Made by a program: the position numbers and the translations under genes | Shown: in pieces, positions 3,461 through 61,279 of the stretch | How positions within the stretch are numbered: the stretch's first letter is position 1 | Layout of the letters: each line of letters begins with the position of its first letter | The notes under the pieces: generated by a model | What the model saw: the letters and a program-made list of their open reading frames with translations, nothing else | What the model was told of the DNA's origin: nothing | Database searches by the model: none | Assembly (NCBI GenBank): GCA_049510295.1 | Contig: JBEKZC010000005.1 | Span: 17,546-81,545, forward strand | Direction of reading: 5' to 3' | Length of the DNA: 64,000 nt | DNA from: Verrucomicrobiota bacterium | Lineage (GTDB): Bacteria; Verrucomicrobiota; Verrucomicrobiia; Limisphaerales; UBA11358

Positions 3461-3517
3461 ATAAGGAAACCAAGAGGGCAGGAGAATAATCTCCTCATGG
3501 TTTCATGGATTCCTTAT
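3461..3517 (+). terminator. nested hairpin downstream of the hydro-lyase gene
   Basis: ATAAGGAAACCA (3461-3472) pairs with TGGATTCCTTAT (3506-3517). An inner GGAGAataaTCTCC hairpin sits between them, and an A/T-rich tail (taaaattt) follows. Confidence 0.35.
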
Positions 3518-3559
3518 TAAAATTTGAAATTGCATTCGCGCGTGGCGTATTTATCCCGC
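3517..3559 (-). pseudogene. orphan copy of the last 43 nt (stop + 13 codons) of the lipoate-ligase-like gene
   Basis: ttaaaatttgaaattgcattcgcgcgtggcgtatttatcccgc matches 5679-5721 with 3 mismatches, in the same orientation. Confidence 0.8.
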
Positions 3560-3660
3560 CCCGGAATCACGACGATTCCGAGTTTACTTGTCGTGGTATG
3601 AATTCCATTGCATGCTCGGTTCGGATCGAAACCGCGTGTACGGGCTGATTGTGAATTTCC

Positions 3661-5678: not shown

Positions 5679-6422
5679 TTAAAATTTAAAATTCCACTCG
5701 CGCGTGGCGTATTTATCCCGCGCCAGAGCAAAAATCTTTTCCGTTAAAAAACCTTTCAATGGTTCTTCCGCCTTCCAGGCCTGTCGTAACGCCGCCTTTA
5801 CTTCATTCGCCGGCATGTTCAAATTGGTCAGAAATTCGGTGTGCGCGCGGTGCTCCCGGTAATCGGGCTGCTTCGATGGCATCGGCAAAAGTTCACCGAT
5901 GAGCGCGAGGCCGGAGTCCAGCAGGAATGTTCCGTGAAAAAGCAGGAAGTGTTTGCGGCGGCGCTGGGAGTTGCCGGAAAATTTGCGGTCGCCGATGGCG
6001 AGATCGGTGTGACCGCGCACGGCAATTTCGGGTCTTGGGTCCCGGCTCCTGGATTTGGGCAAGAGGCTTTGCATCGCCGCGCGGTTGCGTTCCATGATGA
6101 ACTGGTTGGCGATGCTGATGCTGTGGAGTGGGCCGTCGGCGGTAATTCGCAGAACCAGCGTGTAGTTGAGGCAGCCGGGTCCTTGCACCACGGTGCCCCC
6201 GCCGGAACAGCGTCGCAGAACCGGGATGCCGCGCGTTTCGCACGCCGCGACGTTCACTTCTGCCGCCACCTTGTTCGCGTAGCCGACGACGACGAAAGGT
6301 TCGCGCGGTTCCCAGAAACGCAGCACCTCGTCGCCGGCACCGGTTTCCGCGGCGTCGAGCAGCACCTCGTCGCCGGCCAGGTTTTCGGCGGGCGAGGGGA
6401 GCGTCAGATCGAGTAATTTCAT
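5679..6422 (-). CDS. lipoate-protein ligase / octanoyltransferase family protein (BPL_LplA_LipB domain)
   Basis: 247 aa with LRFWEP..PFVVVGY...RRCSGGGTVVQGPGCLNYTLV. It is divergent from aceE, which fits the function. Confidence 0.8.
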   Translation of the reverse strand: MKLLDLTLPSPAENLAGDEVLLDAAETGAGDEVLRFWEPREPFVVVGYANKVAAEVNVAACETRGIPVLRRCSGGGTVVQGPGCLNYTLVLRITADGPLHSISIANQFIMERNRAAMQSLLPKSRSRDPRPEIAVRGHTDLAIGDRKFSGNSQRRRKHFLLFHGTFLLDSGLALIGELLPMPSKQPDYREHRAHTEFLTNLNMPANEVKAALRQAWKAEEPLKGFLTEKIFALARDKYATREWNFKF

Positions 6423-11770: not shown

Positions 11771-11886
11771 AGCTACACTTGGAGCGCCGATTTCCGAATC
11801 GGCACGAGGTTCACTGTTCGCGGAACACGCCGGGCCGGAGGCCGGCGCTCCGGTGACAGTTGCGCTCACAGAGCGCCGCTACAAAA
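11771..11886. repeat. composite palindromic (REP-like) element
   Basis: The outer stem is GGAGCGCCG (11781-89) with CGGCGCTCC (11843-51). Inner hairpins are GCCGATttccgaATCGGC and GCGCTCacagAGCGC. The end CGCCGCTACAAAA recurs at 59441-59453. Confidence 0.7.
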
Positions 11887-16582: not shown

Positions 16583-16658
<76 letters not shown>

Positions 16659-17174: not shown

Positions 17175-17858
17175 ATGAAACTGACCAAATTCGCCTTCAC
17201 AGCCATCGTGGCGGCGCTCGCGCTATGGGTATCCAACACCAAAGCAAGCACAGGAATTCCAGTATTCGAAAAGCTCAACTTCAGCCTGACCGTCGTGCAA
17301 CAAAGCTTGGACTATTCGAATTCCGCCCCATCCACCTACCTCTCCACCGTCGAAACCGCAAAAATCACCAGCAAGGACCTTTTGAGTTTTTTGGCGACGG
17401 CCTTTAATACAAACTGGCCTACGGGCGCACAACTGGCGCTAAATAATCTTGATAAGCATATTTTTGTCGTGGACAAAACCGGCACGAATCCTGTTTTTGA
17501 CGTCAGCATCGGCATCAATGTCGGCGACACTAATGTCGTTTACTTTAGCTTTGATTCTAACCCCACTGTTTTTAGGGGCAAAGAGGTGCTCAAGACTGGC
17601 GGAAGCCGGAAGGAAGATCACTTTGGGATGATTTTCTTTTTTCTCTTCAGTGAACAGAATGGAGTCACCACCACCGACCTCAGTTTTCAAGGTTTCGACG
17701 CCGCCAAGCTCGTTGAGAGTTTCGGTAGCACGAAGGAGACATTCGGGGTGCATGATGCGGCACTTGTCGGCGGCGACGGTACGCTGAATAGCAAGTGGAC
17801 CGTGGTTAAGGGCAAGGTGACCGGCTTCGGGAAGTCGAAAGTTCTGCCTCCTACATAA
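17175..17858 (+). CDS. hypothetical secreted protein
   Basis: 227 aa with the signal peptide MKLTKFAFTAIVAALALWVSNTKA. No recognisable domain. Confidence 0.6.
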   Translation: MKLTKFAFTAIVAALALWVSNTKASTGIPVFEKLNFSLTVVQQSLDYSNSAPSTYLSTVETAKITSKDLLSFLATAFNTNWPTGAQLALNNLDKHIFVVDKTGTNPVFDVSIGINVGDTNVVYFSFDSNPTVFRGKEVLKTGGSRKEDHFGMIFFFLFSEQNGVTTTDLSFQGFDAAKLVESFGSTKETFGVHDAALVGGDGTLNSKWTVVKGKVTGFGKSKVLPPT

Positions 17859-19257: not shown

Positions 19258-19302
19258 CTGAAAATCCTTGTGTCGGCGGTTCAATTCCGCCCCCAGCCAC
19301 CA
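19258..19302 (+). repeat. duplicated 3' 45 nt of tRNA-Phe (attR-like)
   Basis: ctgaaaatccttgtgtcggcggttcaattccgcccccagccacca is identical to 16614-16658. Confidence 0.95.
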
Positions 19303-19412
19303 GCCTTCGCCCGCAGCGTAGCGAGGACGAAGGCTGCCGCGCCGTAGCACAGAGTTGCGTAGGTGAGCTGGTAAGACGACTGCCAGCGGGCTACGGCTCG
19401 GCAAGCCAGCCA
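19303..19412 (+). repeat. ~110-nt structured tRNA-trailing element (copy 1)
   Basis: About 85% identical to the reverse complement of 21965-22079, which directly follows tRNA-Ala. It contains the hairpin GCCTTCG..CGAAGGC and a long stem GCCGTAGC..GCTGGTA/TGCCAGC..GCTACGGC. Confidence 0.8.
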
Positions 19413-21964: not shown

Positions 21965-22079
21965 CTGAAGAACTGGCTTGCCGAGCCGTAGCCCGCTGGT
22001 AGTGCGTCGTACCAGCCCGCCTACGCGCTATGCGCTTCGGCGCGGCAGCCTTCGTCCTCGCTCCGCTGCGGGCGAAGGC
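21965..22079 (-). repeat. ~110-nt structured tRNA-trailing element (copy 2)
   Basis: It immediately follows the CCA end of tRNA-Ala on the minus strand and is homologous to 19303-19412. Confidence 0.8.
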
Positions 22080-22155
22080 TGGTGGAGCCGACAGGAATCG
22101 AACCTGCGACCTTCTCATTGCGAACGAGACGCTCTGCCAACTGAGCTACGACCCC
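22080..22155 (-). tRNA. tRNA-Ala (anticodon CGC), CCA encoded
   Basis: Manual cloverleaf of GGGGTCGTAGCTCAGTTGGCAGAGCGTCTCGTTCGCAATGAGAAGGTCGCAGGTTCGATTCCTGTCGGCTCCACCA. The G3:U70 Ala identity pair is present. Confidence 0.93.
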
Positions 22156-23316: not shown

Positions 23317-23340
23317 ATTTACGATTTACGATATACGATT
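23317..23340. repeat. left arm of a perfect 24-bp inverted repeat flanking the four-helix-bundle gene
   Basis: atttacgatttacgatatacgatt. Its reverse complement occurs at 23753-23776. It starts 6 nt after the cdsA stop. Confidence 0.95.
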
Positions 23341-23392
23341 TACGCCCGTGTTGGCAGACCATGATGATTAAACATTCAAAGACTGAACTGCT

Positions 23393-23767
23393 ATGACTCG
23401 TGAAGAAATGAAATCTCGGACGAAGGAATATGCGAATCGCATCGTTCGCGTTTGTGCAGCGCTGCCGAATAATTGGGTCGCGCAAACATTGGGCAAGCAA
23501 CTTCTCCGCAGTGGAACTTCGGTGGGGGCAAACCATCGCGCCGTCTGCCGCGCCAAATCCAACCCGGATTTCATCAACAAGCTTCGTATTGTCGAGGAGG
23601 AATGTGACGAATCGCTTTTTTGGATGGAACTGCTGGTGGACAACAATCTCATCAAGCTGTCCCGACTTGGTGGCCTGATGAAGGAGGCTGATGAAATTCT
23701 GGCCATCATCGTCTCTTCGGCGAAAACCGCGCGAACATCAAATGGACGCGTCAATCGTATATCGTAA
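23393..23767 (+). CDS. four-helix-bundle protein (23S rRNA intervening-sequence protein family)
   Basis: 124 aa with ...LGKQLLRSGTSVGANHRAVCRAKSNPDFINKLRIVEEECDESLFWMELL, which is typical of that family. Confidence 0.85.
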   Translation: MTREEMKSRTKEYANRIVRVCAALPNNWVAQTLGKQLLRSGTSVGANHRAVCRAKSNPDFINKLRIVEEECDESLFWMELLVDNNLIKLSRLGGLMKEADEILAIIVSSAKTARTSNGRVNRIS

Positions 23768-23776
23768 ATCGTAAAT
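23753..23776. repeat. right arm of the perfect 24-bp inverted repeat
   Basis: aatcgtatatcgtaaatcgtaaat. It overlaps the stop of the four-helix-bundle gene and the first two nt of the dxr ATG (23775). Confidence 0.95.
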
Positions 23777-25412: not shown

Positions 25413-25518
25413 GTAGCCGCGGACGTCAGTCCGCGCCAAAATAATTCTGGGAAAAGACTTCCAAACCGGGAAGTTTGCGCCGACTGATGTCGGCGGCTAC
25501 GGTTCAGGAATTCAACGC
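25413..25518. repeat. GTAG-type REP doublet (REPIN-like), family 1b, intergenic copy
   Basis: GTAGCCGC-GGACgtcaGTCC-GC ... GCGCCGACtgatGTCGGC-GGCTAC followed by GGTTCAGGAATTCAACGC. It has the same ends as the copy inside tsaD. Confidence 0.85.
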
Positions 25519-25650
25519 TCGCCTTTTTTTGTTGCGGCGTTTTTTCTACCTGAAAAACGGCTGGTGGCGGTAACTTGCGTTCCGTGATTGCGGGCAAAGT
25601 TTTCCCTGATATATTCAGGGCGTCCCTTCGTAAGGGGCGGATTTTTTTAC

Positions 25651-27048: not shown

Positions 27049-28935
27049 ATGCGTTACTGCGAATCCCCGTTTTTCCATCACCGGCGAAAGACCCGCGAAG
27101 TCGTCATCGGTGATCCGGCGCGTGGCGGGGTCATCATCGGGGGCGACCATCCCGTCGTGAAGCAGTCCATGCTCACCTGCGACACGATGGATACCGCCGA
27201 ATCCGTCAAACAGACGCTCGATCTCGTTGCCGTCGGCTGCCAGCTCGTCCGCATCACCGCGCCAACCGTGAAGGACGCGGCGAACCTGCAGAACATTGTT
27301 GCCGAGCTGCATAAACGCGGCTGTTTCGTGCCGATTGTGGCGGACATCCATTTCAAGCCGGAAGCGGCGATGGAAGCGGTTAAGTGGGTTGAGGTCGTGC
27401 GCGTCAATCCCGGCAATTACGCCGACTCAAAGAAATTTGCCATCAAGGAATACACGAACGAGCAATATGCCGCCGAGTTGAAGCGCATTGAGGAAAAATT
27501 CGCGCCGCTCGTGCTGGAATGCATCCGCCTGAAACGCTGCCTGCGCATCGGCACCAACCACGGCTCGTTGAGCGACCGCATCATGAATCGCTATGGCGAC
27601 ACGCCGCTCGGCATGGTGGAGAGCGCGCTGGAATTCGCCCGCATCTGCCGCCAGCACAACTTCCACAATTTCAAGTTCTCGTTGAAGTCGTCGAATCCGA
27701 AAGTGATGATCGAGTGCTACCGGCTGTTGGTGGCGCGGCTGGAACAGGAAGGGCCGGATTGGAATTATCCGATTCATCTCGGCGTCACCGAAGCAGGCGA
27801 GGGCGAGGATGGTCGCATCAAGAGCGCCATCGGCATCGGTTCGCTGTTGTGCGACGGCCTGGGCGACACGATTCGCGTCTCGCTCACGGAGGATTCGCCG
27901 CGTGAAATCGAAGTCTGCACCGATTTGCTGGCGCAGATTCCCCATCTCACACTTTCGGAAGGGCGAGTTCCACGAGCCCCCAATTCAAAATGCGAAAAAA
28001 GTTTGGGGCTCGCGGAACTCGCCCCTCCGAACTCTTTTCCGTTCGACCCGTTCCACTTCGAGCGTCGCAAAACACCGGAAATTGAGCTGGTTGACGGCGT
28101 GAAATGCGGCGGCGAACAGCTCATCCGCGTGGTCGTCACCCGCGCCACGTGGGACAAGGTGGCTCCGAAGATTCGGCCCAAGGATGACGTGAAACCGGAA
28201 GCGGTCTATGAAGACCTGAACATTGCCGAGATTGACCCCACCAAGGATTTTGAAATCAACTGTGAGACGCAACTTGTCACCGTGAAGGACGGCGTAAACC
28301 TGCCGGCCATCACAGCGTTTCGTTTGCTGGCTTTGAAACTGAAGCGGCTCGGACGCAACAATCCGATTTTGCTGAAGGACTGCCTGGAGTTTGGTAGCCG
28401 CCGCCGTGAGTCGGCGCAAAACTCACCCGCGAAGGAAGGTGCGCCGACTGACTTCGTCGGCGACGAAGTTCTTGAACCGAAAATCGCTCTGCTGCGGGCA
28501 TCGGTGGTCATTGGTTCGTTGCTGGCGGATGGCGTTGGCGACGCAATTTTGATTCGCGGCGAGGCCGGTGGCGGACAATCACTGCGGCTGGCTTACAACA
28601 TTTTGCAGGCGGCGGGTTGCCGTTCGTTCAAGACCGATTACGTGGCGTGTCCGTCATGTGGGCGGACGCTGTTCAATCTTCAGACCGTCACCGCGCGCAT
28701 CAAATCGCGCACGGAACATCTCAAGGGCGTGAAGATCGCGATCATGGGTTGCATCGTGAACGGCCCGGGCGAGATGGCCGACGCGGATTTCGGCTACGTG
28801 GGCGGCGCGCCGGGCAAGATCAATCTTTACGTTGGCAAGCAAGCCATCAAATTCAACATCCCCGAAACCGAGGCCGTGGACCGTCTGGTGGACCTCATCA
28901 AGGAACACAACAAGTGGATGGAGCCGGAAACGTAA
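27049..28935 (+). CDS. ispG: 4-hydroxy-3-methylbut-2-en-1-yl diphosphate synthase, long form
   Basis: VRVNPGNYAD, VACPSCGRT and MGCIVNGPGE. The 628-aa length indicates the insert-domain type. Confidence 0.93.
   Translation: MRYCESPFFHHRRKTREVVIGDPARGGVIIGGDHPVVKQSMLTCDTMDTAESVKQTLDLVAVGCQLVRITAPTVKDAANLQNIVAELHKRGCFVPIVADIHFKPEAAMEAVKWVEVVRVNPGNYADSKKFAIKEYTNEQYAAELKRIEEKFAPLVLECIRLKRCLRIGTNHGSLSDRIMNRYGDTPLGMVESALEFARICRQHNFHNFKFSLKSSNPKVMIECYRLLVARLEQEGPDWNYPIHLGVTEAGEGEDGRIKSAIGIGSLLCDGLGDTIRVSLTEDSPREIEVCTDLLAQIPHLTLSEGRVPRAPNSKCEKSLGLAELAPPNSFPFDPFHFERRKTPEIELVDGVKCGGEQLIRVVVTRATWDKVAPKIRPKDDVKPEAVYEDLNIAEIDPTKDFEINCETQLVTVKDGVNLPAITAFRLLALKLKRLGRNNPILLKDCLEFGSRRRESAQNSPAKEGAPTDFVGDEVLEPKIALLRASVVIGSLLADGVGDAILIRGEAGGGQSLRLAYNILQAAGCRSFKTDYVACPSCGRTLFNLQTVTARIKSRTEHLKGVKIAIMGCIVNGPGEMADADFGYVGGAPGKINLYVGKQAIKFNIPETEAVDRLVDLIKEHNKWMEPET
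28394..28465. repeat. degenerate family-1b REP doublet inside the ispG reading frame
   Basis: gtagccgccgccgtgagtcggcgcaaaa...ggtgcgccgactgacttcgtcggcgacg aligns with both ends of the 25413 element. GAGTCGGCGCA/TGCGCCGACT form a stem. It is translated as ..SRRRESAQNSPAKEGAPTDFVGD.. Confidence 0.55.
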
Positions 28936-40836: not shown

Positions 40837-41970
40837 ATGACGGTTCTTGCCCTTGAAACTTCCTGTGACGAAACCAGCGCCGCCGTTGTGCGCGACGGCA
40901 GGGTTTTGTCCAGCACCGTTTCCTCGCAAATCAAGTTGCACGCCGAATACGGCGGCGTCGTGCCGGAACTTGCCGCCCGCGAACATCTGCGGAATTTGAT
41001 TCCCGTCGTGCAAACCGCGTTACGCGATGCGGGTGTGCCGCCGGGACAACTCGACGCTGTTGCTGCCACGCAAGGACCGGGTTTGCCGATGGCCTTGCTC
41101 GTCGGATTCAAAGCGGCGCAAGCCGTCGCGTTTGCCTTGCGGAAGCCATTCATGGGCATCAACCATCACGAAGCGCATTTGTATTCACCCTGGATTTCTC
41201 AACAACCAGTGCCACTCCCTGTAGCCGCGGACGTCAGTCCGCGCACTTTAAGTTCAATGAAAGTCAGCGCCGACTCATGTCGGCGGCTACGGTTCAGGGA
41301 CTCAATGCGCGGAATTTTCTTTGCCGACTTTGCCGCCTTTCAACCAAACGTTTCGCTCATTGTCAGCGGCGGGCACACGATGCTCGTGCGGGTGGAATCC
41401 GAATTGAAACATCGCGTGCTCGGTTCGACGGTGGACGACGCAGCGGGCGAATGTTTCGACAAAACCGGCAAGCTCATGGGGCTGCCATATCCCGCCGGAC
41501 CGGAAATTGACCGGCTGGCAGAGCAGGGGAATCCCAAGGCGTATCATTTTCCGCGACCTTTGCTTAATGACCCCGGTGACGACTTCAGCTTCAGTGGCTT
41601 GAAAACCTCCGTGCGCTATTTTCTCCGCGATCATCCGGGGATTTTGGATGACGCGCAACGGGTGCGCGATTTGTGCGCCAGCATCCAGGCGGCGATTGTC
41701 GAGGTGCTCGTGAAAAAAACCATCCGCGCGGCGAAGCGAAACCACGTCCGTTGTGTGACTGCCTCCGGAGGCGTTACCTGCAATCGCGCCTTGCGTCGCG
41801 AACTGGCGCGCGCGTGCGAGCGTGAAGGTTTAACGCTGCGTCTCGCGGAAAAAAGTCTTTGCACCGACAACGCGGCGATGATCGGCATACTGGCCGAACG
41901 AAAATTGGCGCATCAAATTCCGGCTTCAACCTTCGACGAGGAAATCAAACCTAGCTGGGTTCTTGCTTGA
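40837..41970 (+). CDS. tsaD: tRNA N6-adenosine threonylcarbamoyltransferase TsaD (carries an in-frame repeat insertion)
   Basis: LALETSCDETSAAV, HAEYGGVVPE, GINHHEAHL, VSGGHT, DDAAGECFDKTGK and CTDNAAMI. Confidence 0.93.
   Translation: MTVLALETSCDETSAAVVRDGRVLSSTVSSQIKLHAEYGGVVPELAAREHLRNLIPVVQTALRDAGVPPGQLDAVAATQGPGLPMALLVGFKAAQAVAFALRKPFMGINHHEAHLYSPWISQQPVPLPVAADVSPRTLSSMKVSADSCRRLRFRDSMRGIFFADFAAFQPNVSLIVSGGHTMLVRVESELKHRVLGSTVDDAAGECFDKTGKLMGLPYPAGPEIDRLAEQGNPKAYHFPRPLLNDPGDDFSFSGLKTSVRYFLRDHPGILDDAQRVRDLCASIQAAIVEVLVKKTIRAAKRNHVRCVTASGGVTCNRALRRELARACEREGLTLRLAEKSLCTDNAAMIGILAERKLAHQIPASTFDEEIKPSWVLA
41221..41310. repeat. GTAG-type REP doublet, family 1b, in frame inside tsaD
   Basis: gtagccgcggacgtcagtccgcgc...gcgccgactcatgtcggcggctac + ggttcagggactcaatgc. 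It shares its ends with the intergenic copy at 25413. It is translated as VAADVSPRTLSSMKVSADSCRRLRFRDSMRG. Confidence 0.85.
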
Positions 41971-41989
41971 GTCGAGAAATGCGTCACAC

Positions 41990-44683
41990 ATGGCTGACCG
42001 TTTGCCCATTTACGAAATCGAGCGCGACATCGTCGTCCGGCTGAAAGCCGGCCGGCGGCTGATTTTGTCCGCGCCGACCGGTTCCGGCAAATCCACGCAG
42101 GTGCCGCAGATGCTGCTCCGGCACGGACTGCTCGGCGACGGGCAGGTGGTGATTCTTCAGCCGCGCCGGCTGGCTACGCGGTTGCTCGCGTCGCGCGTGG
42201 CGCAGGAACTCGGCGTCCAGCTTGGCAACGAAATCGGCTACCAAATCCGCTTCGAAAATGTCACGTCGCCGCAGACGAAAATCCGTTTTGTGACGGAAGG
42301 CGTTTTGTTGCGGCAGATGATTGACGATCCAAAGCTGCGCGGCGTTGCCGTCTTGATCTTCGACGAATTTCACGAGCGGCATCTTTACGGCGACATCACG
42401 CTGGCGCGCGCACTGGATTTGCAGGAGCAGCACCGGCCCGACCTGAATCTCATCGTCATGTCCGCCACGCTCGATGCAGAGTTGCTGGAGGATTATCTTT
42501 CCCAATGTAGCAGCGGACGTGAGTCCGCTCATTCTTCTTCGGCGGAAAGTCAGAGCCGACTCACGTCGGCTGCTACAAATAATTTTCGCTGCTCCATCCT
42601 TTCCTCTGAAGGCCGGGTGTTCCCGGTTGAAATCAAATATGCCGCGGAGCCGGGTTACACGGGCAAACGCCCGGTTTGGGAACAGGCTGCCGAGGCCTTC
42701 AGCCACTACGTCGGCTCCGGTGGGGAAGGGGACGTGCTGGTGTTCATGCCGGGAGGTTATGAGATTTCGCAGACCATCGAGGCCATCCGGCACACTTCGG
42801 AGTCGAAAGGTTTTATTTTGCTTCCGTTGCACGGTGAACTTTCGCCCAAAGACCAGGACGCCGCAGTGGCGCGTTACGGTCAGCGTAAAGTGGTCGTTTC
42901 CACCAATGTCGCCGAGACCTCGCTGACCATTGACGGCATCCGGCTGGTGATTGACAGCGGGCTGGCGCGCATTCCGCGTTACGATCCGTATCGCGGCATC
43001 AATACGCTGCTCATCGAAAAGATCAGCCAATCGTCCGCCGACCAGCGCACGGGTCGGGCGGGTCGCACCGTGCCGGGTGTTTGCATGAGGCTTTGGTCGC
43101 GGGAGGAACATGGACATCGGCTGGTTCAGGAACTGCCCGAAATCAAGCGGCTTGATCTGGCCGAAGTGGTGCTCACGCTCAAAGCCGCCGGGGTCGAAGA
43201 TTTGCGGAAATTCCGCTGGCTCGAAAAGCCGGACGAAATTTCGCTCACCCATGCGGAGGAATTGTTGCTGGATTTGGGTGCGCTCCAACGTAGGACAGGC
43301 GTCCCGCCTGTCTCCAATCAATTTCCCGCTCAAGCGCAACAGAAAGTTGGAGACAGGCTGGAAGCCTGTCCTACGTTAATAACCTCCATCGGCTGCAAGA
43401 TGCTCGCCTTTCCGCTACATCCGCGCTACTCGCGCATGTTGCTCGCGGCGCAGGAATACGGCTGCGTTCATCAAGCCTGCCTCGTTGCCGCGCTCACGCA
43501 GGGGCGCGATTTGCTTTTGCGGAATGTGGACCGCGACACGAATTCGTTCCGTGAGGATTTGCTCGGCGACAAGCCGTCGTCCGACTTCTGGATTCTCATG
43601 CGCGCGTGGACTTATGCGGCCAAAAACCAATTCCGCCTCGACGCCTGCCGCCGGCTTGGCATCCACGCCGTGACCGCGCGGCAGGTCGGGCCGTTGTTCG
43701 AACAGTTCCTTCGCATCGCCAAAGATGAAGGTCTCGATGTAAAAGCACGGGAAGTGAAAGATGATGCTTTGCAAAAGTGCATTCTCATCGGGTTTTCCGA
43801 CCGCGTGGCGCGCCGGCTCGACCAGGGCACACTCCGTTGTGAATTGGTTCATAATCGTCGCGGTGTGCTGGCGCGTGAAAGCGCCGTGCAACACAGTCCC
43901 TTGTTCGTTGCCGCCGAAGTCCGCGAAGTCGAGGGCAGGGAAGTGAACACCATTCTTTCCCTGGCCACCGCCATTGAAGTGGACTGGTTGCGCGAACTGT
44001 TCCCCGAAGACATGGAGTCGGATTTGCATGTCCAATTCGATTCAACGGCAAAACGGGTGCAAGCTGCGGAATTGTTGAAGTTTCGCGGCTTGGCGTTGTC
44101 GGCCAAACGCGTTGAACCGCCGCCGGCCGACATGGCGGCACGATTGCTGGCCGATGAGATAATTGCCGGACGATTGCCGTTGCCGAATTGGGATCACAGT
44201 GTCGAGCAATGGCTGTTGCGGCTGCGCCTGCTTTGCCAGCATTGTCCCGAGCTCCAGCTTCCGCCCATCACCGAAGATGACCGCAAGCACATCATCGGGC
44301 AGCTTTGCCACGGCGCGGTGAGCTACAAGGACATCAAGGAACGTGAAGTAAAACCGGTCGTGATGTCGTGGCTGTCCGAGGCGCAGCGCGGGTTGCTGGA
44401 CAAGCACGCGCCGGAGCGGTTGACGCTGCCAAACGGCCGCACGCCGAAGGTCGCTTACGAGGCAACCGGCTTGCCGCATATTTCGTTGCGCATCCAGGAG
44501 CTTTACGACGTGACCCAGACGCCGAAGATTGCGCTGGGGCGCGTGCCGGTGCTGGTCCACATTCTGACCCCGGGCATGAAGCCGATCCAGATTACACAGG
44601 ACCTGACCAGTTTCTGGCGTGAGCACTATCCGCGCATCAAATCCGAGTTGCAGCGGAAATATCCGAAACACCTGTGGCGATGA
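41990..44683 (+). CDS. hrpB: ATP-dependent RNA helicase HrpB (DEAH box; carries two in-frame repeat insertions)
   Basis: APTGSGKST, FDEFHERH, MSATLD, VVSTNVAETSLTI, QRTGRAGR and a C-terminal HrpB-type domain. The start was chosen at the ATG at 41990. Confidence 0.9.
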   Translation: MADRLPIYEIERDIVVRLKAGRRLILSAPTGSGKSTQVPQMLLRHGLLGDGQVVILQPRRLATRLLASRVAQELGVQLGNEIGYQIRFENVTSPQTKIRFVTEGVLLRQMIDDPKLRGVAVLIFDEFHERHLYGDITLARALDLQEQHRPDLNLIVMSATLDAELLEDYLSQCSSGRESAHSSSAESQSRLTSAATNNFRCSILSSEGRVFPVEIKYAAEPGYTGKRPVWEQAAEAFSHYVGSGGEGDVLVFMPGGYEISQTIEAIRHTSESKGFILLPLHGELSPKDQDAAVARYGQRKVVVSTNVAETSLTIDGIRLVIDSGLARIPRYDPYRGINTLLIEKISQSSADQRTGRAGRTVPGVCMRLWSREEHGHRLVQELPEIKRLDLAEVVLTLKAAGVEDLRKFRWLEKPDEISLTHAEELLLDLGALQRRTGVPPVSNQFPAQAQQKVGDRLEACPTLITSIGCKMLAFPLHPRYSRMLLAAQEYGCVHQACLVAALTQGRDLLLRNVDRDTNSFREDLLGDKPSSDFWILMRAWTYAAKNQFRLDACRRLGIHAVTARQVGPLFEQFLRIAKDEGLDVKAREVKDDALQKCILIGFSDRVARRLDQGTLRCELVHNRRGVLARESAVQHSPLFVAAEVREVEGREVNTILSLATAIEVDWLRELFPEDMESDLHVQFDSTAKRVQAAELLKFRGLALSAKRVEPPPADMAARLLADEIIAGRLPLPNWDHSVEQWLLRLRLLCQHCPELQLPPITEDDRKHIIGQLCHGAVSYKDIKEREVKPVVMSWLSEAQRGLLDKHAPERLTLPNGRTPKVAYEATGLPHISLRIQELYDVTQTPKIALGRVPVLVHILTPGMKPIQITQDLTSFWREHYPRIKSELQRKYPKHLWR
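42507..42576. repeat. GTAG-type REP doublet, family 1a, in frame inside hrpB
   Basis: gtagcagcggacgtgagtccgctc...agagccgactcacgtcggctgctac. It is nearly identical to the intergenic copy at 48116-48184. It is translated as CSSGRESAHSSSAESQSRLTSAAT. Confidence 0.9.
43287..43376. repeat. GTAG-type REP doublet, family 3, exactly 90 nt, in frame inside hrpB
   Basis: AACGTAGGACAGGCgtcccGCCTGTCTCC ... GGAGACAGGCtggaaGCCTGTCCTACGTT. A partial copy lies at 46607-46636. It is translated as QRRTGVPPVSNQFPAQAQQKVGDRLEACPT. Confidence 0.85.
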
Positions 44684-44714: not shown

Positions 44715-44776
44715 CCCCTCGCCCCGTCCCTCTCCCCGCCCAGCGGGAAGAGGGTGGCCGCTGGCCGGGAGAGGGG
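44715..44776. repeat. CCCTCTCCCC/GGGAGAGGGG palindromic repeat
   Basis: Hairpin in the hrpB-downstream spacer. Related motifs in both orientations lie at 47871-47905 and 48063-48092. Confidence 0.6.
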
Positions 44777-44795
44777 TGATGATTGATAACCCGCG

Positions 44796-46425: not shown

Positions 46426-46630
46426 ATGTCGGACTGTCTGTTTGACCCAAATTGAACCCCGACTGGCTGGAGGGGCAAGAAGAAACCGGCAGGAGCAAGT
46501 GATTCTGCCGTTGCCGACCACCGGTGTGCTTGATGACACTACATTTTGTTCGAACTCTGCGGCGGCAGCGGTCCGCTGGCGAGTCACGGTCACAGCAAAG
46601 CGCTTTTGAGAACAGGCTGGAAGCACTGTC

Positions 46631-47806
46631 CTACTTTGAAAGGCTTTTACAGAACCGCTCGATGCGCTCCAATCCCTTCTCAAGGTTTGCCATGCTGGTG
46701 GCGTAGCTGATGCGGATGTAATCGTCCGCACCGAACGCGATGCCGGGCACGGCGGCGACCTTCTCCGCTTCGAGCAGCTTCGCGCAGAATTCGGTGGACT
46801 TAAGACCGGTCTTGGAAATGTTCGGGAACAGGTAAAATGCGCCCTTCGCGTTGACGCACGAAACACCCGGTATGCTGTTCAATTTCTGGTGCGCGAAACG
46901 GCGGCGTTTGTCGAATTCCACCAGCCAGGCTTTCAAATGATCCATTGAACCGGTGATTGCGGCCAGCGCACCCTTCTGCGCGAACGACGTCGGGTTGCTT
47001 GTGCTGTGGCTTTGCACGGCGTCAATTGCTTTCGCAATCGGCTCCGGCGCGGCGAGAAATCCCAAACGCCAGCCGGTCATGCTCCAAGCCTTGGCAAATC
47101 CGTGAACGATGATGGTGTGCTCCTGGTGCGCCGGCGAGAAGCTGGCAACGCTCTTGTGCACCGCGCCGTCGTAAAGCAGGTGCTCGTAAATTTCGTCGCT
47201 CATGATGAGCACGCCCTTTTCCACGCAAACGTCGCCCAGCGCCTTGATTTCTTCCGGCGTATAAACGCTGCCGGTCGGGTTGCTCGGCGAGTTCAGGATG
47301 AAAAGCCGTGTGTTGGGCGTGATGGCGGCGCGGAGTTGCGCGGGGGTGACTTTGAATTCGGTCTTGTCGGTGGTTGGCAGGATCACCGGTTTCGCGCTCG
47401 CGAGCTTCACCATTTCCGGATAGCTCAACCAATAGGGCGCGGGAATAAGCACTTCATCGCCTTCCTGGCACGTCGCCAGAATGGCGTTGTTACACGAATG
47501 TTTGCCGCCGCAGGAAACAATGATTTGCGACGGCTTGTAAGTGAGGCCGTTCTCGCGCTTGAACTTGTCGGCGATGGCCTGGCGCAATTCCGGGATGCCG
47601 CTGGACGGCGTGTATTTGGTGAACCCGGCGGCGAGCGCCTTGGCGGCGGCGTCCTTGATGTGTTGCGGCGTGTCGAAATCCGGTTCACCGGCGCCGAAGC
47701 CGACAACGTCCTCGCCCGCGGCCTTCATGGCCTTGGCCTTCGCGTCAATGGCCAGGGTGAGCGACGGTGACAACGAAGCGGCGCGTTTGGAAATTTTGTA
47801 GTTCAT
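46631..47806 (-). CDS. class I pyridoxal-phosphate aminotransferase (aspartate aminotransferase-like)
   Basis: 391 aa with NSPSNPTG and the PLP-lysine region GFAKAWSMTGWRLGF. Confidence 0.9.
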   Translation of the reverse strand: MNYKISKRAASLSPSLTLAIDAKAKAMKAAGEDVVGFGAGEPDFDTPQHIKDAAAKALAAGFTKYTPSSGIPELRQAIADKFKRENGLTYKPSQIIVSCGGKHSCNNAILATCQEGDEVLIPAPYWLSYPEMVKLASAKPVILPTTDKTEFKVTPAQLRAAITPNTRLFILNSPSNPTGSVYTPEEIKALGDVCVEKGVLIMSDEIYEHLLYDGAVHKSVASFSPAHQEHTIIVHGFAKAWSMTGWRLGFLAAPEPIAKAIDAVQSHSTSNPTSFAQKGALAAITGSMDHLKAWLVEFDKRRRFAHQKLNSIPGVSCVNAKGAFYLFPNISKTGLKSTEFCAKLLEAEKVAAVPGIAFGADDYIRISYATSMANLEKGLERIERFCKSLSK

Positions 47807-48115: not shown

Positions 48116-48184
48116 GTAGCAGCGGACGTGAGTCCGCTCATTCACATCCGGCGAAAGTCAGAGCCGACTCACATCGGCTGCTAC
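48116..48184. repeat. GTAG-type REP doublet, family 1a, intergenic copy
   Basis: gtagcagcggacgtgagtccgctcattcacatccggcgaaagtcagagccgactcacatcggctgctac. Confidence 0.9.
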
Positions 48185-51862: not shown

Positions 51863-51912
51863 GGTGGGGCGAGGCTACCGACGAGCCGGCTCGCGAGCAC
51901 GCTCGCCCCACC
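51863..51912. repeat. GGTGGGGCGAG...CTCGCCCCACC palindromic repeat (copy 1)
   Basis: It has the same termini and GGCT(A/C)CCGACGAG core as 53935-54006. Confidence 0.8.
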
Positions 51913-53687: not shown

Positions 53688-53739
53688 GGCGTGTCTTAAA
53701 AATCGGTTTGATGTGTCAGCGCCGGAGACGCGCGAGCAA

Positions 53740-53878
53740 GTAGCCCACGGTGAAACCGTGGGTTTGGTCGTCGAAAAGATCAAGCCCCGGCAGGGGCGGC
53801 AGAAAACCGGCGTAAAACGTTTCTTTCGCCCCGTTCCGGGGCTTGGACGGTTTGCGGTGGTTTCACCGTGGGCTGCTA
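53740..53878. repeat. nested palindromic REP-like element
   Basis: GTAGCCCACGGtgaaaCCGTGGG at the left and the inverted GGTTTCACCGTGGGCTGCTAT at the right. The inner stem is AAGCCCCGG/CCGGGGCTT. Confidence 0.75.
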
Positions 53879-53934
53879 TCGGTCGCTGCTCCGCACCTAC
53901 AAATGGATTTTGAAAACACGCCTTGGAATGCAAG

Positions 53935-54006
53935 GGTGGGGCGAGGCTCCCGACGAGTCGGAGAGAAGTCAAAATGCTTGCGGCTCGCGAGGACGCTCGC
54001 CCCACC
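53935..54006. repeat. GGTGGGGCGAG...CTCGCCCCACC palindromic repeat (copy 2)
   Basis: See 51863-51912. Confidence 0.8.
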
Positions 54007-54814: not shown

Positions 54815-55022
54815 ATTGTACTCTGCAGCGATGGTCTGTCCCGAAAGCTTTTGGGTCTGTGACCGCCACCAATCAAAAACTGCGACGCTCATAGAACGCC
54901 GGTACAAAGCTTCCGTCGGGTGTTACAATTATTGAAATAGCTATTACACAAATTGTAACATTGGGGTTGCCAGCTAAATGAAGACTTTGAACAGAAGTCA
55001 ACTCCGCCGGCGTCCGAACCGG

Positions 55023-57324: not shown

Positions 57325-57379
57325 GGCGGCGCGATAATCCTACCGGCCTTCGCGGAAGAAAAGCAAAAAACATGAGGTT

Positions 57380-57443
57380 GTAGCATCGAGCCAGTGGCTC
57401 GATAAATCGTTCAGATAAAATCGGCGCACAGCCCCGACGCTAC
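57380..57443. repeat. GTAG-type REP doublet, family 2
   Basis: GTAGCATCGAGCCagtGGCTCGAT ... CGGCGCacaGCCCCGACGCTAC. Its partner copy is at 58999-59049. Confidence 0.8.
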
Positions 57444-57628
57444 AACTCCGAAGCGCCCGCGTCAGTAGTTCACTCTTGGCTTTCCAAATGCTTTATCTCA
57501 GTTGAGCTTATTATGCGAACCGACGATAAGAGGCGATTTGAACAAGATGAAGGCAGGCCACGTCTAAATTCTGGACATGGCCGGGCTTCAGAAGGCAGCA
57601 CTGTCGCCATCTCACAAAAGGGGTTTGC

Positions 57629-58926: not shown

Positions 58927-58998
58927 GTGCGCAGTGTTTTACGCGTACCGTCAGTGAAACACAAGTCCGCCGCCGGGTGCTAGTGTCCTAAATTTCGT

Positions 58999-59049
58999 GT
59001 AGCGTCGAGCCGGCGTCTCGACCAAATCGGCGCAAAGCGCCGACACTAC
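58999..59049. repeat. GTAG-type REP doublet, family 2, nested in a longer palindrome
   Basis: GTAGCGTCGAG..CTCGAC ... TCGGCGCaaaGCGCCGACACTAC. It is flanked by the outer inverted repeat GTGTCCTAAATTT / AAAATTAGGACAC. Confidence 0.8.
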
Positions 59050-59113
59050 AACAAAATTAGGACACCGGGTGCTGGATTGCCATTTGCGCCTGAACCGGCA
59101 ACACTGTTTGCCC

Positions 59114-59395: not shown

Positions 59396-59453
59396 ATAGC
59401 GGCGCTCTGTGAGCGCCGGAATATGGCGACGGTCATAGACCGCCGCTACAAAA
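59396..59453. repeat. palindromic REP-like element
   Basis: TAGCGGCG...CGCCGCTACAAAA with the inner hairpin GGCGCTctgtgAGCGCC. It is related to 11862-11886. Confidence 0.65.
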
Positions 59454-59903: not shown

Positions 59904-60191
59904 AATGCAAACGTGGGAGAAGATTTAACGCAAAGAACGCGACCTGTCACGCCGTAGCCGGAAGCGAAGGTGGAAGGTGCAAGCCAAAAAGCAATTGCGG
60001 TAACTCTGGGAACATTGCCATTGCAGCGGGTGGAGTTGTTTGTCGGTTGCCTTAAAGCTGGTCGGGATATCAGCCTTTGCTCTGAAGCTTCGGTGCGACT
60101 GGTTGGCTTCTCCAGAGGTGTGCGCCATGGTTAAAAAATATGTATTACCTGAAGGAATACAGGAAGTTACGCAAATTGCCAATAATTCGCC

Positions 60192-60220
60192 TTGTCTTTT
60201 TCTGGAACATGTCCTATACT
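60192..60220 (+). promoter_or_regulatory. candidate promoter of receiver gene 1 (near-leaderless)
   Basis: TTGTCT (60192-97), a 17-nt spacer, then TATACT (60215-20), with the ATG at 60233. The homologous position before receiver gene 2 has diverged (CATGCT). Confidence 0.4.
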
Positions 60221-60232
60221 TAGACAGTTGTT

Positions 60233-60706
60233 ATGATATTAAATGTTCCAACTCAAAAAATCCTGGTTGTTGATGACAATCCGATAATCCTGAAGGTCTT
60301 GTCTTCGGCCTTCAAAGCCAGAGGCTACGAGGTGTTTGCCGCCGTTGACGGTCCCGAGGCCTTCATCATCGTGAGCCGGGAACAGCCGGACCTCATTTTG
60401 CTCGATATTTTCTTTCCGCCGGATCTTTTCCAAAGCGGCAACACTTGGGATGCGTTTAAGATTATGAACTGGCTCCAACGCATGGGCGGACCCCAAGCCA
60501 GGCACATCTCCGTAATCATCATGTCCGGCGCTGACCCGGGGGAAATCAAGGATCGTTGTCTGGCCGCCGGCGCGCTGGACTACTTCCAAAAACCGATCCA
60601 GATGCCCGAGTTGCTGGACGCCATTCAGCAAATCTTCTGCCCGGCTGTGAGCGAAGTGCCTCTTGAATTGGCGGCCATTTCAAATTCCGACAGCCTGCGC
60701 CTTTAG
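60233..60706 (+). CDS. stand-alone CheY-like receiver protein (copy 1)
   Basis: ILVVDDN, DLILLDIFFPPD (phospho-acceptor Asp), IIMSG and FQKP. Confidence 0.9.
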   Translation: MILNVPTQKILVVDDNPIILKVLSSAFKARGYEVFAAVDGPEAFIIVSREQPDLILLDIFFPPDLFQSGNTWDAFKIMNWLQRMGGPQARHISVIIMSGADPGEIKDRCLAAGALDYFQKPIQMPELLDAIQQIFCPAVSEVPLELAAISNSDSLRL

Positions 60707-60805
60707 CCAAACATCCGGTGGCAATGCGCTCAACGGGGCGGGGGCAAATTGGCAATAATTTGCCTTCTTTTTTTCTGGAGTATTTGTCATGCTGAGGCCG
60801 TTGTT

Positions 60806-61279
60806 ATGGTGTCAAGTGTTCCCACCAAAAAAATTCTGGTTGTTGATGATAATCAGATAATCCTGAACGTCTTGTCGTCGGCCCTTAAAGCCGGAGGCTA
60901 CGAGGTGTTTGCCGCCGTTGACGGTCCCGCAGCCTTCACGGTCGTGCTTCAGGAACAGCCGGACCTCATCCTGCTCGATATTTTCTTTCCGCCCGATATC
61001 TTCCAGAGTGGCAACACTTGGGATGCGTTTCAGATTATGCACTGGCTCCAACGCATGGGCGGACCCCAAGCCAGCCGCACCCCCGTATTCGTCATGTCCG
61101 GGGCTGAACCGGGGGAAATCAGGGATCGCTGTCTGGCCGCCGGCGCAGTGGACTACTTCCAAAAACCGGTCAGGATACCCGAACTGCTGGACGCCATTCA
61201 GCAAATCTTCCGCCCGAGTGTGAGCGATGTGCCGCTTGAATTGGCGGCCATTTCAAATTCCGATCGCTTGCGCCTCTAG
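60806..61279 (+). CDS. stand-alone CheY-like receiver protein (copy 2, tandem paralogue)
   Basis: About 80% aa identity to copy 1 over the full length (by eye). The duplication unit of ~573 bp includes the upstream region. The start was moved to the ATG at 60806. Confidence 0.9.
   Translation: MVSSVPTKKILVVDDNQIILNVLSSALKAGGYEVFAAVDGPAAFTVVLQEQPDLILLDIFFPPDIFQSGNTWDAFQIMHWLQRMGGPQASRTPVFVMSGAEPGEIRDRCLAAGAVDYFQKPVRIPELLDAIQQIFRPSVSDVPLELAAISNSDRLRL

Follow-up and report, generated by a model that had tools for sequence, protein, structure and literature searches.

Repetitive extragenic palindromic (REP) sequences of the GTAG type are not confined to the spaces between genes, and their presence in frame within genes has been known since 2013. 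In the parts of the survey by Di Nocera, De Gregorio and Rocco (2013, BMC Genomics 14:522; PMC3733652) that we draw on, such intragenic REPs are mostly inverted dimers that contribute 20-30 residues to the protein, are most numerous in the Verrucomicrobium Opitutus terrae, and have hosts enriched for repair genes, helicases and tRNA-related enzymes; in one case, different REPs occupy about the same site of recB in two Xanthomonas species. Here we describe elements of this type in a stretch of 64,000 nucleotides (nt) from an uncultured Verrucomicrobiota bacterium of the Limisphaerales lineage (contig JBEKZC010000005.1), referred to below as the window, in which they lie in frame inside the genes tsaD, hrpB and ispG.

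Several other systems resemble this one in part. Rickettsia palindromic elements, according to the relevant part of the review PMC10969869 (citing Ogata et al. 2000, Science 290:347), are selfish, are inserted in frame in unrelated housekeeping genes, are compatible with the fold and function of their hosts, and occur as several families per genome. REP doublets forming hairpins (REPINs) consist of inverted REPs that together with a spacer form a long hairpin; as described in the portions of this literature used here (Bertels and Rainey 2011; Nunvar 2010; Ton-Hoang 2012), they are dispersed, conserve GTAG and are associated with REP-associated tyrosine transposases (RAYTs). The REPORTH preprint (10.1101/2024.10.14.618302) found that REPINs kept at the same position are altered over time and come to match the RAYT that predominates in the genome, and suggests that RAYTs can modify or replace REPINs. 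[quoted passage not shown]

For the elements in the window we propose, with a probability of roughly 80%, that they are REPIN-type doublets tolerated in frame as disordered loops and replaced by one another at a few hot spots.

Palindromic elements inside tsaD, hrpB and ispG

The neighbouring genes tsaD and hrpB lie on the same (+) strand and both reading frames are intact. A preliminary description of this DNA had placed three palindromic elements inside them, which ORF analysis, an inverted-repeat search and RNA folding bear out; two further in-frame palindromes, in ispG, had been overlooked. Genes, insert segments and elements are the following.

40837-41970, + strand: tsaD, host gene, tRNA t6A37 threonylcarbamoyltransferase; 377 amino acids (aa), intact; Pfam TsaD, E = 7.5e-86
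41197-41322, + strand: lineage-specific insert segment of tsaD, 126 nt (42 aa), flanked by SPWI and ADF
41221-41290, + strand: family-1a REP doublet in tsaD, GTAG...CTAC, arms 41221-41244 and 41267-41290, followed by the subfamily tail GGTTCAGGGACTCAATGCGCG to 41311
41990-44683, + strand: hrpB, host gene, DEAH-box ATP-dependent helicase; 897 aa, intact; Pfam DEAD, Helicase_C, HA2_C and HrpB_C
42500-42589, + strand: insert segment at hrpB site 1, 30 aa, against 2 aa in Escherichia coli HrpB
42507-42576, + strand: family-1b doublet at hrpB site 1, palindrome arms 42506-42530 and 42553-42577, read as CSSGRESAHSSSAESQSRLTSAAT
43286-43378, + strand: insert segment at hrpB site 2, 31 aa, against 5 aa in empty orthologues
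43290-43374, + strand: family-2 doublet GTAGGACAGGC...GCCTGTCCTAC at hrpB site 2, read as RRTGVPPVSNQFPAQAQQKVGDRLEACPT
27049-28935, + strand: ispG (gcpE), third host gene; Pfam GcpE, E = 4e-118, in two stretches
27954-28031, + strand: in-frame palindromic doublet of a different family (GGAAGGGCGAGTTCCACGAGCCCC...) at ispG site A, read as SEGRVPRAPNSKCEKSLGLAELAPPN
28391-28467, + strand: decayed doublet resembling family 1 at ispG site B, read as GSRRRESAQNSPAKEGAPTDFVGDE

Each element of tsaD and hrpB is made of two inverted REP units, begins with GTAG and ends with CTAC. The family-1 REP is the 22-mer GTAGCMGCGGACGTSAGTCCGC, the family-2 REP is GTAGGACAGGC-N5-GCCTGTC, and the doublet in tsaD together with its tail translates as VAADVSPRTLSSMKVSADSCRRLRFRDSMR. 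The element at 42507-42576 stands exactly as first reported. The tsaD element was correctly located, its reported extent (41221-41310) being longer than the doublet because the subfamily tail had been included; the third element, reported as exactly 90 nt at 43287-43376, is also in its place, with a GTAG-to-CTAC span of 85 nt and a whole palindrome of 91 nt (arms 43287-43317 and 43347-43377, 94% complementary). The family at ispG site A has no GTAG.

Folding of the RNA gave z scores of -6.9 for tsaD, -8.1 for hrpB site 1 and -11.1 for hrpB site 2, with none of 200 shuffled sequences folding as well; at ispG the scores were -10.7 (site A) and -2.4 (site B). All in-gene elements of the three genes are in frame and without stops, the two ORFs for which this had been claimed at the outset included, and lie in genes longer than 120 aa, which is how Di Nocera et al. 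delimit intragenic REPs. Families 1 and 2 have the characters of GTAG-type REPs, namely an imperfect palindrome of 20-40 nt, a terminal GTAG and dispersed, mostly extragenic copies, and the inverted pairing of two REPs around a short spacer into one long hairpin is the architecture of a REPIN. An Rfam search of the window returned two tRNAs only, and no element matches a known structured RNA family at the gathering score.

Dispersed copies in the window

Family 1 has five copies (loci) across the 64 kb, and GTAGCMGCGGACGTSAGTCCGC, searched with up to three mismatches and with the arms of both strands counted, matches nine times, against 0.00 expected from shuffled sequences. The copies outside tsaD, hrpB and ispG that bear on the present argument are these.

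25413-25521, + strand: intergenic family-1a doublet (25413-25500) with a 21-nt tail, GGTTCAGGRAYTCAAYGCKCG, as in the tsaD copy
48116-48184, + strand: intergenic family-1b doublet, 64/70 identical to that of hrpB site 1
46607-46636, - strand: partial arm of family 2, located where an aminotransferase gene has its 3' end
11781-11851: intergenic doublet GGAGCGCC...GGCGCTCC, of a family that in relatives (L089, L087) also fills hrpB site 1 and the tsaD site
44715-44780: intergenic palindrome CCCTCTCCCCGC.../...GGGAGAGGGG just 3' of hrpB, of a family also found at the tsaD site (L001) and hrpB site 1 (L086)

The preliminary description had called the intergenic copies near-identical to those in the genes and had noted the partial copy at 46607-46636. 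The dispersal and the partial copy are upheld. "Near-identical" is too strong for the one at 25413, the left 22-mer of which is identical to that of tsaD while the whole doublets agree at only 57 of 88 positions; the two share the extra tail GGTTCAGGGGTTCAACGCGCG, which marks a subfamily of family 1 and in tsaD extends to 41311.

Altogether 18 REP-type elements were identified in the window, 13 of them intergenic and five in genes, so that their density is 0.10 per kb of coding and 1.0 per kb of non-coding DNA. This roughly tenfold rarity in coding DNA indicates that genic copies are selected against and that the survivors are a filtered subset. At least five further families of REP-type palindromes occupy intergenic positions (53723-54006, 51863-51912, 57377-57446, 58983-59065, 59397-59453, 11863-11886 and 54886-54909), and these include three doublets clustered in one spacer of 370 nt; the source genome is very rich in REPs.

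Structure of the mobile unit and its reading frames

A scan of public metagenome contigs with the family-1 REP matched at least 120 contigs, and all census figures given in this paper refer to the copies among the matches listed. An inverted partner lies within 130 nt of 105 of the 125 hits. Across 104 distinct doublets, conservation is full from GTAG to CTAC and is lost one base outside, with an information content of 2.0 bits at GTAG and about 0 beyond. Doublet length is variable (59-76 nt and more), and multiples of three are not favoured.

Among the 93 copies that could be judged, 26 sit in long ORFs with a coding-like G+C content at third codon positions, and all 26 are read in just two frames, as VAADVSP... 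or as xSSGRESA...; the two are exactly those in which the TAG of GTAG is not read. The two readings had been noticed earlier in the window (VAADVSPR... in tsaD, CSSGRESAH... in hrpB), and they are the sole two that avoid this stop. The ten longest REP-bearing ORFs are all recognisable genes by Pfam (10/10), encoding HsdR, a DEAD/DUF3516 helicase, the alanyl- and valyl-tRNA synthetases (AlaRS and ValRS), MutS, AddB, RecQ, UvrB, a GH20 enzyme and a multihaem cytochrome.

The choice of frames bears on the possibility that the palindromes are present in the DNA but do not reach the mature protein, through DNA excision in part of the population, removal from the mRNA or bypass by the ribosome. Hairpins as strong as these (-42 to -59 kcal/mol) could in principle promote slippage or bypass, and RAYT-type enzymes cut REP DNA according to the portions of the REP/REPIN literature cited above. 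Were the inserts removed, however, neither frame nor stops would be constrained, yet all 26 copies in ORFs keep to the two TAG-free frames, and the insert keeps the frame in every case across about 360 orthologues, a biased sample in that only full-length proteins were retrieved. We regard removal as highly improbable. On sequence grounds, the restricted frames and the kept frame together imply that the inserts would be translated rather than removed before translation. The predicted tryptic peptides of the insert regions are VSADSCR, TLSSMK, ESAHSSSAESQSR, LTSAATNNFR, TGVPPVSNQFPAQAQQK and LEACPTLITSIGCK, of which VSADSCR, ESAHSSSAESQSR and TGVPPVSNQFPAQAQQK would span insert junctions.

Empty and filled sites in orthologues

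Close sets were assembled from the best ~120 relatives per gene, giving 121 sequences where the window is included with 120 relatives, and the DNA of relatives was taken from the contigs that encode the homologous proteins. The TsaD relatives are 77-91% identical to the window protein and, by their source names, belong to metagenome-assembled genomes (MAGs) of Verrucomicrobiota or Limisphaerales. A scan of genome contigs with TsaD yielded mostly distant phyla among the matches listed, only L001-L004 being close.

The tsaD site is empty or short in 38 of 121 aligned sequences (SPWI-xGGGAL-ADF or SPWI-SGEPPV-ADF); at exactly the same position, the remaining relatives carry at least six unrelated families of insert peptides. 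The corresponding DNA is 18 nt long in L085 and 24 nt in L211, as opposed to 126 nt in the window, and every filled tsaD site in the DNA of relatives is a strong palindrome, with the sequence family differing. At hrpB site 1 all 121 sequences of the close set are occupied, by inserts of 15-42 aa from at least eight families. At hrpB site 2, 118 of 121 are filled, the three empty ones being P0221, P0228 and P0236 (LGAL-DKNNS-IT), and the DNA of L210 has an empty site of 15 nt. Orthologues of ispG carry many families at both sites; site A is occupied in almost all of them, and empty alleles exist at site B (LLKDCINFEPVP-LEPKIALL). A third variable position in HrpB, at window residues ~633-637 (roughly 43886-43900), is empty in the window and holds inserts in up to 12 of 120 relatives.

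In a distant set of 134 representative HrpB proteins (37-68% identity), both sites are short, the median length being 2 residues at site 1, where 8 is the maximum, and 5 residues at site 2; loops of insert size were found in 0/134 at site 1 and in 3/134 at site 2.

Presence and absence at orthologous positions, seen at tsaD, hrpB site 2 and ispG site B, mark the in-gene elements as insertions, as judged from the aligned sequences. The preliminary description had already taken them for dispersed repeats and not ancestral coding sequence, a view that would have suffered had orthologues free of the repeats carried the same peptides; empty sites were found instead, and the five family-1 loci of the window and the metagenome contigs agree with it. 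One might nevertheless see in the inserts ancestral, fast-evolving loops, with intergenic look-alikes that are derived from genes or arose by chance, given that protein loops evolve fast and that the insert peptides are of low complexity. This is refuted by the ninefold occurrence of the 22-mer where none is expected, by its spread over at least 120 unrelated metagenome contigs and many unrelated genes, by the exchange of unrelated families at one site, and by the empty sites of close relatives, with which the near-absence of insert-sized loops from distant HrpB agrees. A protein loop would also have no reason to adopt an inverted-repeat architecture, and we accord the ancestral origin next to no probability.

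Condition of the host genes

The ratio of nonsynonymous to synonymous substitution (dN/dS), calculated against five relatives, is 0.10-0.24 for tsaD and 0.09-0.16 for hrpB (0.09-0.24 for the two combined), and the catalytic motifs and residues are invariant. Both genes are under purifying selection. The window HrpB matches E. coli HrpB (6EUD) with E = 1e-110, and the window IspG is 100% identical to P0241. Twelve contigs encode exactly this TsaD with its insert, and the three places shown belong to as many different metagenome samples; inserts in genes also recur on big contigs of 0.2-0.7 Mb.

These observations concern a further possibility, that tsaD and hrpB are decaying pseudogenes or chimeras produced by the collapse of repeats during assembly. 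Metagenome assemblies are indeed the source of the data and repeats can cause mis-joins. Intact frames, low dN/dS, invariant catalytic residues, and the identity of TsaD on contigs from different samples all contradict this explanation, and after a chimeric join a gene would not continue in frame with its own downstream half. Save for a possible second intact tsaD or hrpB elsewhere in the genome, this explanation is refuted, and we find it scarcely credible; the pseudogene condition that the preliminary description had named as a danger to its view does not apply.

Position of the inserts in the proteins

The Pfam TsaD match to the window protein is broken into two stretches between which the insert is skipped, and matches to TsaD structures in PDB are likewise broken around residues 124-159. 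By alignment to Thermotoga maritima TsaD (6NAK), the insert immediately follows the metal-binding motif HxxxH and precedes the VSGGHT strand, five to eight residues past a metal ligand. In the alignment to 6EUD, hrpB site 1 falls between residues 173 and 176, where RecA1 meets RecA2, and the LGAL motif immediately precedes site 2, which lies at about residue 404. These positions agree with those first proposed, between HxxGHL and VSGGHT in TsaD and at two short-loop sites in HrpB. In an AlphaFold2 model of TsaD (mean predicted local distance difference test score, pLDDT, of 69.9), residues 127-157 have pLDDT < 50 and no secondary structure, whereas the flanking core is modelled.

The preliminary description had asked whether the additional peptides are tolerated loops or have acquired a function. 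The evidence leans towards tolerated loops, because the sequences are hypervariable and the TsaD insert has pLDDT < 50.

Turnover at fixed sites

The occupant of a site changes quickly. Among pairs of orthologues with 94-97% identity in the core protein, the insert family is common to both in only 16-29%, which is near background, as against 48-84% at >=97% core identity; the identity of the occupant thus decays far faster than the host protein. These pairwise statistics in identity bins replaced an attempt to count events by Fitch parsimony on a neighbour-joining tree of TsaD (64 changes, 9 states), which was set aside since a single-gene tree at 77-91% identity is too weak.

Where the same family sits at one site in distant genomes, the element can be much better conserved than its host. 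Between the window and L210, hrpB has a synonymous divergence (dS) of ~1.0 and a third-position identity of 59%, and the site-1 element, spacer included, is identical at 69 of 70 positions. Compared with L085 (dS 0.9), the site-2 element is identical at 78 of 85. The elements are younger or more constrained than the host gene.

At the DNA level, several palindromic families, with folding energies from -30 to -89 kcal/mol, alternate at one and the same site. Some are related variants of the form GTRG-NNN-CAGGC-N5/6-GCCTG and others are unrelated (GTAGCAGCGGAC..., GGAGCGCCGG..., CCCCTCTCCC...). Families that fill the genic sites of relatives are found between genes in the window (11781-11851 and 44715-44780). 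Intermediate forms occur as well: at hrpB site 1 of L087 (11618-11734) a second palindrome is nested in the spacer of the resident doublet, and at hrpB site 2 of L001 (14588-14782) the element has been duplicated in tandem together with its flanking ITPI codons.

Most simply, these data are read as replacement or re-insertion that has recurred at a small number of permissive positions. We suggest the following course. The elements are REPIN-type REP doublets of two inverted 22-25-nt hairpins, running from GTAG to CTAC with a 20-35-nt spacer. They would be non-autonomous mobile DNA that presumably depends on a RAYT (Y1/HUH) transposase acting in trans, the gene for which would lie in another part of the genome. 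Copies that land in genes would normally be lost. Those that survive lengthen the gene by a multiple of three nt, keep to a TAG-free frame and are situated in a surface loop or at a domain junction, and the places of survival here are the loop after HxxxH in TsaD, the RecA1-RecA2 junction and the loop after LGAL in HrpB, and the two positions in IspG. There the repeats would be translated as disordered passenger loops of 25-35 residues. The few permissive positions would have become hot spots in this Verrucomicrobial (Limisphaerales-like) lineage, the resident element time and again giving way to, or being overwritten by, other REP families or new copies of its own family, and it is this replacement that we propose as the cause of a hypervariable loop in a conserved enzyme.

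The same pattern may be read in terms of usefulness. The inserts may be kept for a function of the hairpin, such as translational pausing and co-translational folding, mRNA stability or a site for gyrase or integration host factor (IHF), or as a needed spacer loop, any strong palindrome serving the purpose. In favour of this are the occupation of hrpB site 1 in the entire close set by at least eight families and never by fewer than 15 aa, the filling of hrpB site 2 and ispG site A in almost all relatives, the location at domain junctions, the palindromy kept strong at z scores of -7 to -11, and the conservation of the elements far above that of synonymous sites in the host. On the other hand, genomes that are otherwise similar still have empty alleles of tsaD (38/121), of hrpB at site 2 and of ispG at site B, distant homologues, including the E. 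coli and T. maritima enzymes of solved structure, do without the loops, identical families reside in intergenic DNA, and ispG site B has decayed (z = -2.4). High occupancy would be expected also from a ratchet, if replacement is much commoner than precise loss. Retention for function appears rather improbable to us.

Recurrence at the same positions is compatible with selection for loops that are tolerated, and also with targeting of the hairpin already in place. A further possibility is that the genic positions are fixed landing pads for a site-directed, transposase-driven exchange of REPIN-type cassettes, with the resident hairpin as the target, hypervariable loops in conserved enzymes as the outcome, and occupancy maintained because the hairpin or loop has come to serve a purpose, such as a pause in folding where two domains meet. 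If true, this would be a natural system of in-frame cassette exchange and not a set of rare tolerated accidents. We consider it unlikely.

Points that weigh against the proposed model

Replacement of REPIN-type doublets at hot spots remains the reading that we prefer, and several observations count against it. The first concerns the transposase: among ~45 ORFs of the window scanned, none encodes a RAYT (Pfam Y1_Tnp), the 64 kb being a fraction of the genome; a regular-expression search for the HUH and YxxNP motifs, run over the window and the DNA of relatives, found no RAYT in the window, and a tblastn search of the window with the RAYT of contig L202 (see below) gave no hit. The link to a transposase is therefore drawn by analogy with the REP/REPIN literature. 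No target-site motif, conserved flank or duplication was found beside the 104 family-1 doublets among the matches listed. Several families that share the sites are without a strict GTAG (GGAG..., GTGG..., CCCCTC...), so not all of them need be RAYT substrates. The complete occupation of hrpB site 1 could mean that the loop or hairpin is now needed there, in contradiction to a neutral passenger. Lastly, the AlphaFold2 model of HrpB, built with 54 close relatives, is unusable (mean pLDDT 48), and the assignment of the HrpB inserts to loops comes from the alignment to 6EUD only.

The sole RAYT in the DNA examined is encoded on metagenome contig L202. Its Y1_Tnp segment (E = 3.7e-5) has flanking REPs that belong to the GTGCTGCCGGCATCCTGCCGGCAG family, and it is this family that fills tsaD in L087. 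In the locus (L202:3-2561, + strand) the RAYT-like segment has flanking REPs at 13-39, 88-144 and 791-820 and continues in one open frame into the helicase core of PriA, with the Walker A motif directly after the 3' REP; more REP-type peptides occur in frame in the Cys-rich region of PriA. Here an entire REPtron could have become embedded in priA in frame, or RAYT and PriA could be fused; the 5' end of the locus is beyond the available sequence.

Other features of the window

Several other repeats were noted. The 3' 45 nt of the gene for tRNA-Phe (16583-16658) are repeated exactly 2.6 kb downstream (19258-19302), which is the signature of a tRNA-integrated element; an ORF between these repeats (17175-17858) has no Pfam match. 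The lptF/G-like and short-chain dehydrogenase genes lie between long inverted repeats at 19272-19409 and 21973-22110 (83 nt at 83% and 31 nt at 97%), one arm of which overlaps the 3' end of tRNA-Ala (22080-22155). Between cdsA and dxr, an ORF of 124 aa has on either side an AT-rich inverted repeat made of TTTACGA-like units (23317-23345 and 23748-23776, 97% complementary).

An ORF that continues beyond the start of the window (3-1703) has weak Pfam matches to TIR_2, an ORC/CDC6-like ATPase and a DNA-methylase-like domain, a defence-like architecture. A direct repeat of 100 nt (1727-1826 and 2882-2981, 90% identity) covers the beginning of the gene for the fumarase C-terminal subunit and suggests a duplicated or truncated upstream copy, and a 49-nt repeat (3517-3565 and 5679-5727, 90%) is found at the ends of two nearby genes. 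The response-regulator genes that stand in tandem further on look like recent paralogues, being 84% identical over a stretch of 300 nt (60171-60470 and 60744-61043).

Implications and comparison with known systems

Selfish palindromes that persist in frame show how far essential enzymes tolerate insertions, and they mark permissive loops without an experiment, here in TsaD, HrpB and the Fe-S enzyme IspG. With occupants up to 99% identical in a host gene that is saturated at silent sites, the sites form a natural data set for rates of REPIN replacement and for site targeting, in which the reading frame acts as a built-in filter. There is a practical side too: such inserts split Pfam and other hidden Markov model matches, inflate the apparent diversity of metagenome proteins, and could mislead orthologue clustering and phylogenies.

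Of the known systems, MITEs have terminal inverted repeats, target-site duplications and an origin from DDE insertion sequences; the present elements have GTAG/CTAC ends, and neither a conserved flank nor a duplication accompanies the 104 doublets among the matches listed. The parallel with the Rickettsia palindromic elements, drawn in the preliminary description, is apt as an analogy and needs qualifying, in-frame GTAG REP dimers being already on record in the cited parts of PMC3733652. The Rickettsia elements (families RPE-1 to RPE-10) are ~100-150 bp long, specific to Rickettsia and not GTAG doublets, whereas those described here are GTAG doublets of 70-85 nt. No dedicated transposase is known for the Rickettsia elements, and site-specific turnover among close relatives is not a described feature of them.

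With REPIN-RAYT systems, as far as the cited portions of that literature portray them, the elements share hairpin doublets, dispersed copies, GTAG and the existence of sequence populations within each genome. Classical REPINs, in contrast, lie nearly all outside genes, and every family goes with a RAYT that has the REPs of this family on its flanks; in the present case no RAYT was found in the window, and that of L202 belongs to another, co-occurring family. The replacement of REPINs reported with REPORTH took place in the extragenic spaces of Pseudomonas chlororaphis and among three related families. At the gene-internal sites, for which we propose the same behaviour, it would have to pass a reading-frame filter, involves many and partly unrelated families, and alters a protein sequence.

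The closest precedent is that of Di Nocera et al., to the extent that we cite it. The likeness lies in the in-frame insertion of inverted GTAG dimers and in the kind of host, our census including RecQ, UvrB, MutS, AddB, AlaRS and ValRS. The present elements differ in belonging to MAGs of uncultured Limisphaerales-like bacteria and in their REP sequences, and tsaD, hrpB and ispG are not among the hosts described in the parts of that paper used here. There, the occupation of one site by different REPs is a single anecdote; here, occupancy by many families is the rule at five sites, with ~120 relatives each. What is new is that replacement is seen within reading frames, in hundreds of uncultured relatives and at five sites that belong to three essential genes, with hypervariable loops in conserved enzymes as the result, and we regard this turnover at hot spots as a worthwhile, if only partly explained, extension of a phenomenon already known.

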